A stretch of 7,879 bases of DNA from a virus (Duplodnaviria > Heunggongvirae > Uroviricota > Caudoviricetes): positions 1 to 7,879 of IMG/VR virus record IMGVR_UViG_2648501338_000002. The stretch is one strand, 5' to 3'. Position numbers: made by a program. Positions 1-3,000 of the stretch are shown here, in pieces (positions within the stretch are counted from its first letter, which is position 1; the number at the start of each line of letters is the position of its first letter).

Positions 1-3000
1 CGGAAGCCTGAATGACACACGGGGACTACAGCCCAAGAAATGAAAAAAGGCCACGCAGTTGCGCAGCCTGATAAACCCTGGTTAAAATCCACACGATAAC
101 AACACAACAATATCAGTATCTCATGCTATTGCCCGAACCCATTCGGGCATTTTTTACCCATAAAAAATGCCCCTCCGGAGAGGGGCATGTTTGCATGCAC
201 ATTCTTTTTCTTGCATGGTGCCGGGTGCCTCCCGGTGAATTCAGTATCAGCACCTGAATCCGCGATTATCACATATACCTGGTTGCTGATTGCCCCTCCG
301 CACAGGGGGATTCACCATGCAGAAGTATTTTTAATAAACAGCAAACAAAAAAATCAAGCATTATGCAGGCTGTTTCTTTTTATCACCGGCCACAGCAATA
401 CCACAATGCCGCAGACCAGCACCCCATCCGCCAGCACCGACATGATTCTGCTGGTGAAATCCACCATCACCACCAGAAACAGCAGGAGTGCAGCCACAGC
501 CAGGCGCAGTTTTACCGTCACAGGTGATTCTCCAGACGAAGACCCAGAACACCGGCAATCTCTTCCAGCACCTTGCGCTCTTCCGGCTCAATTTCGCCGT
601 CTGCCTCCGCAATGGCCACCGCCACATCCAGCACATCTTCCGCTTCACGCGTATCGTGTTTCACATCTTCAATTTCACGCAATGCCGCTCGACGACCAGT
701 TTTAAAGTTCGTATCCAGCTGACCGATAATGGTTGCGCTAATCGCATTAATTTCTGACGTAAACGCGGACAACGCAGGCTGGTTACGCAAGACCTGCTCG
801 ATCTTCGCTTTCTCTGAAGCCTCACATTCACCATCTGCATAGGCCACCAGATAGGCAGCATTAATAACCGCCTGTGCCAGATCACGTTTCTCAAACTTTT
901 TAATTTCCACTGCCGCTCGGCGGGCTTTTTTACCAAAAATACAAACATCGTGACGTTCCTTTGGGTGGGTGAGCCAACGCCCGGGAGCGATCTGCCCACA
1001 GAGAAAGTCACACTGACCACTCCGTAAGCTCACCCCCGAAAGGCTCTGTGGTTGATATGCGCCGGGCGTGGCGCAGATACAAAAAAGGCCCGCCGAAGCG
1101 AGCCAAGTAAATAAATATGGCGCGTTGTACTGGATTCGAACCAGTGACCGATTGCTTAGAAGGCAATTGCTCTGTCCGACTGAGCTAACAACGCATGATG
1201 CTGATAATGGACCGCCATCGGGGACTTGAACCCCGCACAGCCAGCTTCGAAGGCTGACGCTCTATCCCGATGAGCTAATGGCGGTATGTGATGGTGGCCC
1301 TTGCTGGATTTGAACCAGCGACCTGGCGATTATGAGTCGCTCGCTCTCACCACTGAGCTAAAGGGCCGGGCGCAGGATAATAACGGTACGTAACTAATTC
1401 TGCAATATCATCCGTTCTGACTGACTACATTCTGAACTTCCCTGACCGTCTGCTCAAAACGCCCGCTCTCCAGCTCAACGCCAATTGCACGACGCCCCAG
1501 CGCCATTGCTGCTTTGACGCTACGGACATAAAAAAGCCAGCCACTGGGGGAGGCTGGCAAACTCGTAGAGCAAAATGCTGTTACGCAAACTTCGTTACAG
1601 GGTTATCCTGCAATACTTAAAATATACAATATTTAGAAAACTAATAGTGCTATATGCGATTTTTAAGATTTTGTTATTAATTACGGTCGCACCTTCCTTT
1701 CTGTGTACTTTCCGTATAGCTCACAGGATTCGGGGTACAAAAAAACCCGCGCATCGGCGGGTTCGACTGCGTGGCAATGTAACCACTCTTATCATGATAT
1801 GCAGATTTTTACGATCGTAAACTATTTTTTCGCTGATAAAATACAGAGGTTCTCCCTCCCGGCAATTCACGCTCAACATACCGATCCATCTCAAGCCTCA
1901 CTCCCAGCATCATCAGCATGCCTTCAACAATCCCCTCCGCTTTGTGAAGGCGTTTACCTATACAGGTGTCAGAGCACCCATGTTTCCGTGCCAACGCCAT
2001 GAACGTCTCCCCCAACACGTAATAATCAACCAGCAAGTCATGCAGATCGCGATTGTTCCGGTAAAGGCGGGCTATGCACCCGCATATCACCATCGCATCA
2101 TCGTCACAGCACTGTGGACGTGATTTTACTTTTTCGGGGATCAGTCCCTTAAATCCGGCAGCAATGGGCGACCATGTAACATCCTCATAGTTATTTGCCG
2201 CCCATGCCCCCCAGCGCTCAAGAACCTGCCGGATATCACGCATCAGTATCTTTACCCCATCCGCGGTGAACCATAAGAACACCGTTGACGATAGCGTGTC
2301 TTTTCCCTTCTTTATCGCCAGTGTATTTTCTGACCGTGTTGCGACTACAGTTCAGTATTCTGGCTACCTCGGTCTGATTTTCATATGCCTCAACGAGCAT
2401 GTCAGGAATGGTTTTTACTGTGAACGTCATGCGGCCTCACTTCTGCTGTTTCGCAGGTCTTTAAGTTTCTGCTGATACTTCGCCTTGATCGCCCTGCATT
2501 CTTCGACAGTCCAGCGATGGCGGTTATGGTTCGATTCGATTTCGTCTACTGCTTCCTGCCCGATGCGGTTAATCAGTTCGACGCGATACGGAACGAGATT
2601 TCCGCTTTTGTGCTGGTTGCACACCACGCATTGCTTGTGAATATTGCGTTCATCAAATCGGAGTTGAGGTGTCGCAGCAGTTGTCCGGTAATGTCCGGCA
2701 TCCCACTGAGCAGACGTGAGCGTTCCGCACGAGATACATGGTAAGTCGCGGTCTCTTTCTCTGATGAAGGCGTTTACGGCTTGTTGGGCTTGTTTAATCC
2801 AGTAACTGCGGGGCTTTAAGGCGAGTTTTCGAATCTTCAGTTTATCTTTCTGTTTCTGCTCCTCTCGTCGTCGTTTCTTCTCTGCTGCTTTTTCCGCTTT
2901 TTCGCGTTCTTTACTTCGTCGTTCGAGTGCTAATTGAGTTCCGTGTTCCGGGCTGCACCACCACTGATTTGAGAATGCCGGGTGAAACCATTCCTTACAG

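Follow-up and report, generated by a model that had tools for sequence, protein, structure and literature searches.

The window, i.e. the whole stretch of 7,879 nucleotides analysed here (positions 1 to 7,879 of the IMG/VR virus record IMGVR_UViG_2648501338_000002), carries at about 339-1104 on the minus strand a copy of a mobile cargo cassette of phages. Its order is a terminator, a leader RNA of ~135 nt, tciA, the coupled tciB and then an STnc100-type sRNA with a terminator, and we hold the identity and architecture of this cassette with high confidence. The slot that it occupies is bounded on the left by the terminator at 1081..1104 and on the right by STnc100. The features of the locus are as follows:

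1809-2282: Q, upstream of the cassette
1118..1367, minus strand: tRNA block ileZ(CAT)-argN(TCG)-argO(TCT), from ARAGORN, Rfam and RefSeq (tRNA-Ile, two tRNA-Arg)
1081..1104, minus strand: intrinsic terminator after tRNA-Arg(tct), GGCTCGCTTCGGCGGGCC followed by T6
949..1083, minus strand: tciA leader of type I, conserved and structured (nhmmer, covariance model)
518..948, minus strand: tciA, TerB-family gene (Pfam and PHROG matches, alignment to a solved TerB)
518..1033, minus strand: the 171-codon ORF of the original prediction, whose codons 1-28 (GTG at 1033 to ~950) are leader sequence open in frame
925..931, minus strand: A_AAA_AAG heptamer in the frame of ATG 948 (sequence only)
354..521, minus strand: tciB, 55-codon DUF3927 gene (PF13064, PHROG 1470)
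156..349, minus strand: STnc100-family sRNA, a PasD relative (Rfam RF02076, 145.6 bits; gathering score 47)
94..155, plus strand: AgvB (anti-GcvB) sRNA (Rfam RF02702, 96.5 bits; gathering score 56)

Both open reading frames of the original prediction, 518..1033 and 354..521 on the minus strand, are present in the window, as are the three tRNAs (1118-1367) and Q (1809-2282) that it had placed upstream of the TerB-like gene. It had further described the pair as closed off by a terminator instead of continuing into lysis genes. A hairpin does lie at 188..167 on the minus strand, but it forms the 3' end of STnc100, which starts 5 nt past the tciB stop, and the 99.8 % identical prophage of strain C325 runs on to a sialate esterase gene, a holin, a lysozyme and Rz, so that a terminator insulating the pair from the lysis genes was rejected. 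The AgvB gene is convergent with the late strand and has a plus-strand terminator of its own at 130-149.

The gene pair itself is already on record as tciA-tciB of phage P1; GenBank and RefSeq carry it under the labels TerB/DUF3927 and TciA/TciB, and RefSeq records a TerB family protein and a DUF3927 family protein at these positions. The names of the P1 genes are based on homology, not on phenotype. The tciA product is a full-length TerB homologue, canonically of 143 aa and cytoplasmic. Pfam TerB (PF05099) matches residues 54-166 of the listed ORF with 58.4 bits (cut-off 24.4, E=1.1e-15), PHROG 632 (E=3.5e-67) aligns to residues 32-171 only, and the family profile matches the solved Klebsiella TerB 2JXU_A (E=5.4e-12, profile positions 16-137 on chain residues 22-144), which confirms the predicted TerB-family identity. 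Paired acidic ADG...E motifs, a putative metal site, are found at A35 D36 G37 E43 and A111 D114 G115 E121, and both ADG-x5-E motifs are invariant in eight sequences of 42-100 % identity, as in TerB. Weak profile similarity, below the curated cut-offs, extends to DjlA (NF006948, E=1.9e-6) and DUF533 (E=2.7e-5), and PF04391 is co-annotated on many homologues. No terC, terD, terZ or terE was found near the pair in the window, in C325 or in any annotated context of the relatives; its neighbours are tRNAs, sRNA, esterase and lysis genes. Among the PADLOC profiles of anti-phage defence, TciB had no match and TciA only noise at E=0.003.

The small hydrophobic ORF proved to be a real gene. DUF3927 (PF13064) covers residues 3-51 of 55 with 62.3 bits (cut-off 25, E=4e-17), PHROG 1470 ('TciB-like') matches over positions 1-54 of 54 (E=4e-30), and dN/dS values of 0.07-0.46 indicate purifying selection. 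Having been called unannotated, it turns out to bear the RefSeq product name DUF3927 family protein and to correspond to Pfam DUF3927 and P1 TciB. In a comparison of 48 unique homologues, the protein of the window fits the family size of 49-58 aa and the pattern basic-hydrophobic-DFT(S/G)..S..(A/S)DG-hydrophobic-basic; D21, F22, R25, S28, A31 and D32 are invariant in close relatives. A two-helix membrane protein had been proposed as well, and two hydrophobic maxima are indeed present at residues 7-20 and 33-46, but AlphaFold2 models one continuous helix over residues 3-54 (pLDDT 91) and so does not confirm a hairpin topology.

As had been read from the sequence, a GGAG Shine-Dalgarno (SD) motif at 533-530 precedes the GTG at 521-519 by 8 nt, and this GTG overlaps the tciA stop TGA (520-518) as GTGA (521-518). 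The notion of a single operon is well borne out among relatives: of 109 loci, 104 have a TciB-type ORF immediately 3' of TerB, over TerB identities of 37-100 %, with a diverged TciB-like ORF in three of the remaining five, and stop and start overlap in 103 of the 104. Purifying selection acts on both tciA and tciB. We found no genuine TerB-DUF3927 fusion; the apparent fusions P0127 and P0185 have scrambled junctions that need two indels and are artefacts, and all 224 of 224 DUF3927 matches are stand-alone proteins. The pair occurs in E. coli prophages, in phage P1 and in Erwinia and Salmonella jumbo phages. In phages of differing Q types its place is between Q and the holin gene, and an 84-nt probe detected it in 679 of 5,426 complete E. 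coli genomes, usually at three copies each. P1 shares with the window a TerB-family gene, there of ~143 codons, followed by a DUF3927 gene, there of 54 codons, with overlapping stop and start (TAATG in P1, GTGA in the window) and a location among phage tRNA genes. Its TerB, however, is only 52 % identical to that of the window, a third small ORF, tciC, is added, the conserved leader is missing, and the P1 copy lies upstream of ban, whereas that of the window belongs to a Q-dependent late operon.

The slot of tciAB in this late operon, from ileZ-argN-argO to STnc100, is the slot of stx2AB. The flanks are 96 % identical to those of phage Stx2a_F765 up to window position 1070, similarity resumes at 338, and Stx2a_F765 has stx2AB where the window has the leader, tciA and tciB (~339-1069); the position at which the pair had been predicted to replace the toxin genes is borne out by these breakpoints. 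On the left, Q-pR'-tR'-ileZ-argN-argO-terminator is common to the two arrangements, the tRNA block also preceding stx2A in Stx2a_F765 and the terminator at 1081..1104 being shared; on the right follow STnc100/AsxR-type sRNAs, the esterase and the lysis genes, and the region downstream of stx2B is homologous to the STnc100 region of the window. STnc100 has been described 75 nt past stx2 (PMC12370729). Only the cargo differs and is unrelated. The presence/absence polymorphism between near-identical flanks that marks a moron was found against Stx2a_F765, and terminators stand on both sides (1104-1087, 188-167) with no sigma-70-type promoter match over 1087-949. Of the leader, Stx2a_F765 retains no more than the initial ~13 nt, which end with the 5' arm of the first hairpin, H0. 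tciAB is among the commonest cargoes at the stx locus, and its function would explain both the toxin-slot content of non-toxigenic relatives of Stx phages and why, in P1 and jumbo phages, the pair travels together with tRNA genes.

Set against seven intact relatives, the window shows a lesion at the start of tciA. The family start reads ATGTTTGG(T/A)AT and opens proteins of 141-148 aa beginning MFGIF, whereas the window reads ATGTTTG-TATT, i.e. a 1-bp deletion between 942 and 941 that shifts the frame at codon 3 and puts the ATG at 948-946, with its own AAGGA SD, out of the TerB frame (940..518, the same as the RefSeq call in C325). The 171-aa protein of the original prediction thus arises in silico, by joining the TerB frame to leader sequence; the family starts at ATG 948 and counts 143 aa, the extra N-terminal codons are 5' leader sequence, and the GTG at 1033-1031 falls within the 5' strand of leader helix B. 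We rejected the N-terminal extension as a real domain, since in intact alleles in-frame stops precede the ATG by 15-34 codons and 1-nt indels occur between clades. A 1-bp lesion can thus make a structured leader look like a plausible N-terminal protein extension. The deletion allele is found in five of 5,426 complete E. coli genomes, while a probe for the intact start matches 635.

Judged by its reading frame, tciA of this copy is likely to be impaired. TerB output from the allele would probably be low or nil unless ribosomes slip by -1 on A_AAA_AAG (931-925), which fits the dnaX-type pattern X_XXY_YYZ in the zero frame of ATG 948; such a slip would restore the TerB frame and rescue tciA, which is speculative. 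The relatives are in frame and the need for a frameshift is not conserved among them, and for this reason we do not regard the heptamer as a programmed feature of the family. A supposed second frameshift allele, A7, seen in 19 IMG/VR contigs, was not recovered by a centred 46-nt probe, and an 84-nt probe matched one complete genome at 100 %, the next matches at 98.8 % being A6; we take A7 to be mostly a homopolymer sequencing artefact and withdraw recurrent early frameshifts. In other copies, tciA carries a nonsense codon, E45*.

Between terminator and tciA lies a leader that has not been described before, a pseudoknotted RNA of ~135 nt that pairs with the ribosome-binding site and is supported by covariation. 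It was found by nhmmer in 102 of 118 sources and scores 159 bits in the window with a covariance model (946-1083). After the small hairpin H0 (1074-1070/1063-1059), helix A (1051-1044) pairs with A' (1003-996) as a pseudoknot, the anti-SD CCUUU (1043-1039) pairs with the SD AAAGG (962-958), and helices B (1035-1028/974-967) and C (1023-1015/992-984) complete the fold. In an alignment that comprises perhaps 10-12 independent lineages and is partly fitted to the model, two counts of the type I leader found 91.6 % and 94.1 % of cells to be paired, where slid registers reached 36-52 %; both partners had changed in 12 and 19 pairs, respectively (19/35 in the larger count). An independent set of type II leaders was paired in 93.2 % of cells, with 13 of 34 pairs compensatory and slid controls at 32-51 %. 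Helix A, although it was not part of the model, is formed in 96.5 % of cells, two of its positions being compensatory, and the SD/anti-SD pairing holds in 98-100 %. The leader is kept from E. coli prophages to jumbo phages, over TerB proteins down to 42 % identity.

Other structures fared less well. The minimum free energy fold, one long hairpin of -57.1 kcal/mol (z=-2.55), and an 'ON' conformer of a bistable leader were rejected: pairing holds in 86-88 % of cells, but the outer helix is poorly conserved and 122 of 500 shuffles attain the number of compensatory pairs, so that support does not go beyond composition. The alternative 'open' fold shows no covariation above controls. Rfam 15 (4,227 families) gave no match at E<=1 over 949-1083, nor at E<=0.1 for either of the two leader copies in L001. 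A Storz-lab preprint describes PasA and PasD2 as flanking the esterase gene and PasD as structurally homologous to STnc100; PasA and PasD2 are not on the 5' side of tciA, and the Pas sRNAs were discarded as the identity of the leader. A pattern scan of metagenomes returned 120 loci, four of which passed the leader HMM, the rest being mostly chance.

These data make it probable that the leader is a functional structured RNA. The same region might instead serve at the DNA level, as a recombination linker or a promoter/operator, which we consider improbable. The breakpoint of the swap between Stx and tciAB does lie within the leader, in the first arm of H0, its paralogues always stand at junctions of late operon and cargo right after terminators, and a leader conserved above the downstream protein is what recombination linkers would be expected to show. 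Neither a linker nor a promoter, however, predicts compensatory changes, and changes on both sides keep the pairing in two independent sub-families (19/35 and 13/34 pairs, slid registers 32-51 %); the invariant CCUUU/AAAGG complementarity includes the ribosome-binding site, and no sigma-70 promoter consensus was found from terminator to leader (1087-949). For the protein-coding part, two further explanations need to be weighed. The cassette of this prophage could be a decaying remnant, with TciA abolished, tciB drifting and no functional product in the ordinary decay of a known moron, an explanation that we consider somewhat unlikely. The canonical ATG is out of frame, the deletion allele is rare (5/5,426 genomes versus 635 with the intact-start probe), the closest relative C325 has a TGG-to-TAG change that cuts tciB to 43 aa, E45* occurs elsewhere, and in PPompW prophages the first 50 nt of the leader give way to ISEc20 and then terminase genes, tciAB and the lysis genes being absent. 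On the other hand, tciB of the window is intact with its own SD, the remaining TerB frame is undamaged and does not differ from that of functional-looking alleles, A_AAA_AAG would permit some -1 rescue, and the deletion allele is still annotated by PGAP, in C325, as coding for a TerB protein of 140 aa.

The alternative already raised in the original prediction, that TciB is a holin, antiholin or membrane toxin with the TerB-like protein as its regulator or antidote, we regard as very improbable. TciB is small and hydrophobic with charged ends, its gene is tightly coupled to the upstream one, and in lambdoid phages it precedes the lysis cassette. Searches of Pfam, NCBIfam and PHROGs, however, matched it to no holin or toxin profile, and the relatives have a separate class II holin ~2.5 kb downstream, past the 1.9-kb esterase gene, which speaks against a holin role of the small ORF, while, for the copies in the tRNA clusters of P1 and of jumbo phages, the annotation shows no lysis gene within a few kilobases. 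tciB is moreover intact where tciA is disrupted, which would be unexpected were TciA an antidote, and tciA, tciB and tciC of P1 are non-essential, their knock-downs leaving plaque formation unaffected (PMC10695390).

Returning to the leader as a regulatory RNA, its nearest functional counterparts would be leaders that sequester the SD, such as ROSE/FourU, lambda cIII and pseudoknotted translational riboswitches, with which it shares a U-rich/pyrimidine anti-SD paired to the SD and a larger conserved fold before the start codon. It exceeds RNA thermometers by far in size, and further differences are the pseudoknot between loop and 5' flank and the terminator and covarying hairpin that always precede it. 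Leaders of type I precede TerB in 95 of 97 matches, one further match lying at a contig end, and these counts led us to reject a type I leader ahead of other regulon genes. In L122, the remaining match, the leader precedes an HNH-type endonuclease gene that resembles an insertion. Paralogues occur before ant/rha-type genes in 308 phage records, always right after terminators, at junctions between a late-operon gene and inserted cargo. Tentatively, and with somewhat less than even confidence, we propose that the tciA leader is the first known member of a hitherto undescribed family of cis-regulatory RNAs of phages, pseudoknotted, SD-sequestering and terminator-proximal 'moron leaders' that gate the translation of late-operon cargo (tciA and ant/rha/KilA-N-type regulators). 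Such a family would be spread over lambdoid, P22-like and jumbo phages by the hundreds, Stx1 and Stx2 phages among them. If this holds true, the leader would be a widespread uncatalogued control element in the medically important Stx phages, ahead of their antirepressor genes, late-operon cargo would be controlled at the level of translation instead of merely being read through, and the leader would be of more consequence than the protein pair.

The cassette together with its proposed mechanism is, as a whole, the explanation that we moderately favor. Transcription would arise mainly from pR' read-through following Q antitermination. In the pseudoknotted leader the CCUUU-AAAGG pairing would extend the long-range helix B, and as CCUUU is paired with the SD, tciA translation would be gated at initiation; candidate triggers are temperature, a metabolite, a protein of phage or host, or the co-transcriptional context, such as Q-modified read-through. 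tciB would be translated by ribosomes ending at the tciA stop (GTGA) and via its own GGAG.

It is a reasonable inference that tciAB may represent membrane-acting cargo, as had been suggested. How the two proteins might act is more doubtful. TciB may reside in the inner membrane and recruit or partner TciA there, as a minimal analogue of TerB with TerC, or of DjlA and YebE with their membrane-tethered TerB-like domains, and the outcome would be a TerB-type protection of envelope or membrane energy (phenotypes of the tellurite, colicin or phage type) that is dispensable for phage growth; protection by a TciA anchored through TciB seems to us a rather unlikely proposal. TerB of the tellurite-resistance operon terZABCDE (Klebsiella, 2JXU) has the same domain and size (residues 16-137 of 143) and the ADG...E motifs, but the window lacks terC, terD, terZ and terE nearby, and the multi-spanning partner TerC of the ter operon is replaced by a 55-aa mini-protein. 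The hydrophobic-basic N-terminus of TciA, MFGIFKKK, is absent from 2JXU. The N-terminal domain of DjlA and YebE/DUF533 resemble TciA by weak profile similarity and place a TerB-like domain at the inner membrane, yet their membrane segment is part of the same polypeptide, whereas for TciA it would come in trans. Recombination shuffles the clades of tciA and tciB, a clade-1 tciA being joined to a clade-2-like tciB in L078, which argues against tight allele-specific co-adaptation of the two.

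The two ORFs under study belong to the late-regulatory region of a lambdoid prophage, which on the minus strand reads O, P, ren, ninB, dam, two antirepressor-type genes, ninG, ninH, Q, a methyltransferase remnant, three tRNAs and the two ORFs. Past the window end, the 99.8%-identical E. coli C325 prophage continues with a 1.9-kb SASA/sialate esterase gene, a class II holin, lysozyme, an Ant-N-domain gene, Rz and terminase. The relevant features are as follows.

Features of the cassette and its surroundings
1809-2282, minus strand: Q
1821-1794, minus strand: promoter-like TTTACG-16-TATCAT, overlapping the Q stop
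1764-1743, minus strand: strong terminator
1408-1521, minus strand: C-terminal remnant of a site-specific DNA methyltransferase gene
1118-1367, minus strand: three tRNAs
1104-1081: intrinsic terminator before the leader
949-1083, minus strand: leader
948-518, minus strand: tciA, TerB family
521-354, minus strand: tciB, DUF3927 family
156-349, minus strand: STnc100 sRNA (146 bits), in the right flank, beginning 5 nt past the tciB stop
94-155, plus strand: AgvB (anti-GcvB) sRNA (96.5 bits), convergent, after STnc100; a weaker AsxR match overlaps it

Both ORFs are present as the original prediction described them, including the tciB signals (GGAG at 533-530, GTG at 521-519 overlapping TGA at 520-518), and neither is due to chance. 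The larger ORF matches TerB PF05099 with 58.4 bits (cut-off 24.4) and PHROG 632 with E=3.5e-67, the smaller one DUF3927 PF13064 with 62.3 bits (cut-off 25) and PHROG 1470 'TciB-like' with E=4e-30. The proposed TerB identity holds, as TciA is homologous over its full length to TerB of the ter operon (2JXU, E=5e-12), which however lacks the hydrophobic-basic N-terminus of TciA; TciA further carries two invariant ADG-x5-E motifs. The pair cannot be called unannotated, since RefSeq names both ORFs in every close relative, and GenBank records of JLK-2012, P1, P7, D6 and CharmingMan list it as tciA/tciB or terB/upf69.4. Identity and architecture of the cassette are secure. The sighting was correct, the cassette is known and its position was correctly identified, while the gene model and the novelty claim were wrong.

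The position was confirmed by nucleotide alignment of the flanks with the Stx2a phage F765, which is ordered ninG-ninH-Q-ileZ-argN-argO-stx2A-stx2B-esterase-holin-endolysin-antirepressor. Window 2400..1070 is 96% identical to this phage, spanning the terminator and 13 nt of the leader, and similarity returns at 338-292 and 242-24; the cargo therefore comprises window ~339-1069, where the Stx phage carries stx2AB. The hairpin at 161-188, thought to close off the pair, is the STnc100 terminator (188-167). In Stx phages, late transcription from pR' under Q continues into the esterase and lysis genes, and by analogy Q-antiterminated transcription would be expected to run on in the same way here. 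Such continued transcription in Stx phages is described in PMC7547250. In the window, STnc100 might be released from the 3' UTR of the tciAB mRNA. In the literature STnc100 lies 75 nt past stx2B (PMC12370729), and TerB is listed among genes conserved near PasA/PasC sRNAs (bioRxiv 10.64898/2026.05.13.724894).

The promoter-like site and terminator at 1743-1821 (minus strand) look like pR'/tR' by sequence, and this region gave no Rfam match. In Stx phages, pR'/tR' gives rise to a short StxS-type RNA. The methyltransferase remnant between tR' and the tRNAs is a pseudogene in the C325 annotation, and phage EH1910 has an intact 1,065-nt methylase gene in this region. The tRNA gene at 1292-1367 (minus strand) is tRNA-Met(CAT) according to ARAGORN and ileZ according to RefSeq and Stx-phage records; ileZ is tRNA-Ile2, whose CAT is converted to lysidine. 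AUA, AGA/AGG and CGA, all of them rare codons, are read by the three phage tRNAs.

The pair is a unit. We surveyed 109 TerB loci from IMG/VR and GTDB genomes, with TerB identities of 37-100%. A DUF3927-type ORF directly follows TerB in 104 of them; the remaining five are one contig end, three loci whose TciB-like ORF has diverged (with a frameshift in one of them) and one Pseudomonas locus with a different single-pass protein. The stop of tciA and the start of tciB overlap in 103/104 loci; the overlap measures 4 nt in 81 (GTGA 80, TTGA 1), 1 nt in 21 (TAATG/TGATG) and 8 nt in one. Values of dN/dS are 0.07-0.46 for tciB and 0.00-0.43 for tciA. TciB measures 49-58 aa and has a fixed layout of basic N-terminus, hydrophobic stretch, DFT(S/G)xxxSxx(A/S)DG core, second hydrophobic stretch and basic C-terminus. 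Its hydropathy profile has two maxima, and AlphaFold2, given an 18-sequence alignment, models one unbroken helix across residues 3-54 (pLDDT 91). In locus L078, a clade-1 tciA (dN 0.06 to L025) is joined to a clade-2-like tciB (dN 0.13 to L109), and these discordant phylogenies indicate recombination at or near the gene junction. Four different Q/tRNA arrangements are represented among the phages in which the pair lies between Q and the holin gene, and in P1 and in Erwinia/Salmonella jumbo phages it is located within tRNA clusters; a tRNA lies ≤700 nt upstream in 51/105 loci. The surrounding tRNA sets are Asn/Thr...Ile in P1, Trp/Cys...Tyr/Gln/Ile/Met in the Machinavirus jumbo phages and Asn/Thr/Gly in JLK-2012.

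As for function, TerB acts together with the membrane protein TerC and localizes to the inner membrane. TciB would supply a membrane partner for TciA, a reading drawn from the obligate coupling, TerB biology and a weak similarity of TciA to TerB-like domains that are membrane-tethered in DjlA and DUF533; such a membrane-associated module is the best-supported proposal, yet a speculative one that we consider less likely than not. No genuine TerB-DUF3927 fusions exist, no ter genes were found near tciAB, and the pair matched no defence-system profile. In P1, tciA/B/C were non-essential by CRISPRi, and their names are homology-based only.

The larger ORF had been read as 171 aa from GTG 1033, but its PHROG 632 alignment covers residues 32-171 only. 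Seven intact relatives start at ATGTTTGG(T/A)AT..., encoding MFGIF(G/K)KK and proteins of 141-148 aa, 8 nt past an AAGGA Shine-Dalgarno sequence. The window reads ATGTTTG-TATT, with one G lost between 942 and 941, which puts ATG 948-946 in the +1 frame. The TerB frame is open up to GTG 1033, itself within a leader helix, only by accident: in the intact relatives stop codons interrupt this frame 15-34 codons before the ATG, and clades differ by 1-nt indels. PGAP calls a 140-aa protein from ATT 940. The deletion allele occurs in 5/5,426 complete E. coli genomes, while the intact-start probe matched 635 genomes. We consider it likely that tciA is impaired in this copy. A possible leak, judged from sequence, is the classic -1 slippery heptamer A_AAA_AAG (931-925; GTA AAA AAG in the ATG frame), where a -1 slip would re-enter the TerB frame; it is not a family feature, because the relatives are in frame.

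A GC-rich hairpin, GCCCGCCGAGCGGC (910-923 plus, 923-910 minus), directly follows the A6 run within tciA; its spacing to the heptamer is too short for a classical frameshift stimulator, and on the plus strand it scores as terminator-like, antisense to tciA. An apparent second frameshift allele, A7, in 19 older contigs matched exactly in one complete genome only and almost certainly reflects a homopolymer sequencing error. Other copies have independent lesions of their own (C325, L001 9390-9521; L010, L023 and L070; L073-type loci), among them a TGG-to-TAG change shortening TciB to 43 aa, and many O157-type contig sequences show an apparent GAG-to-TAG nonsense codon (E45*) in tciA.

The real lead is an uncatalogued leader family, which the mis-called tciA N-terminus overlaps. 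The ~135 nt between the terminator and ATG 948 are kept from E. coli prophages to jumbo phages, with a conservation exceeding that of the TerB protein, and had no match in Rfam 15. The stem of a proposed hairpin H0 covaries in 5/5 pairs. We further propose a long-range helix B (GGGUGAGC/GCUCACCC), lengthened by CCUUU pairing with the Shine-Dalgarno AAAGG, an inner helix C, and a pseudoknot helix A (CCACAGAG/CUCUGUGG) joining the 5' flank to the helix C loop. When 22 distinct leaders were aligned with MAFFT, 91.6% of cells were paired and 12 pairs changed on both sides, against 40-52% pairing in slid registers. Covariance-model realignment gave 94.1% and 19/35 pairs, against 36-51% and 4-10 pairs in controls. 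Helix A, absent from this model, was still paired in 96.5% of cells. Across the family, helix A takes the forms CACAGAG/CUCUGUG, CGUAGAG/CUCUACG, CGCAGA/UCUGCG, CAGAGAG/CUCUCUG, CACAGAA/UUCUGUG, CAAAGA/UCUUUG and CGAGAG/CUCUCG. The leader is probably a functional RNA, one that most likely gates the translation of cargo genes.

The single-sequence MFE fold differs from the proposed helices and is less well conserved, and a putative open conformer covaried no more than controls. The G tract at ~1036-1040 (minus strand), between anti-Shine-Dalgarno and helix B, varies from G4 to G12 in otherwise near-identical leaders (e.g. phage Evi, L045, L069), which could reflect sequencing error or a slippage-prone tract altering the spacing of the two elements. 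In PPompW prophages (L358 4001-5505), the leader breaks off after its first 50 nt, where IS110-family ISEc20 is inserted at the G-run; terminase genes come next, and these prophages lack tciAB, the esterase gene and the lysis genes.

The covariance model also detected paralogous leader copies of two further types. Type II (44-75 bits) precedes Ant-N, KilAC/Rha and KilA-N genes; it is present in 308 phage records, which span Stx1, Stx2, P22-like, Klebsiella, Shigella and HK639 phages. Type III (44-49 bits) precedes 246-312-aa proteins without assigned function. A type-II-only alignment was 93.2% paired with 13 compensatory pairs, slid registers reaching 32-51% and 0-3 pairs. An intrinsic terminator precedes every leader copy inspected. 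The type II copies of C325 (L001 5391-5533, ~4.5 kb past the window end at position 1) and Stx2a_F765 (L359 11099-11245), scoring 58-75 bits, lie inside the lysis cassette between the endolysin gene and an antirepressor-type gene. In L122 (6927-7062), the ORF after a diverged copy (53 bits) is not TerB but an HNH/AP2-type endonuclease ORF that contains an internal stop, suggesting that a homing endonuclease inserted at the leader/start junction. The ribosome-binding region of stx2A, CCAAAAGGAACACCTGTATATG (L359 5783-5880), resembles the tciA leader at its 3' end, CCCAAAGGAACGTCACGATG, and both share TATCTGCGCC at the 5' end; the stx2 5' region may represent a collapsed form of the tciA leader.
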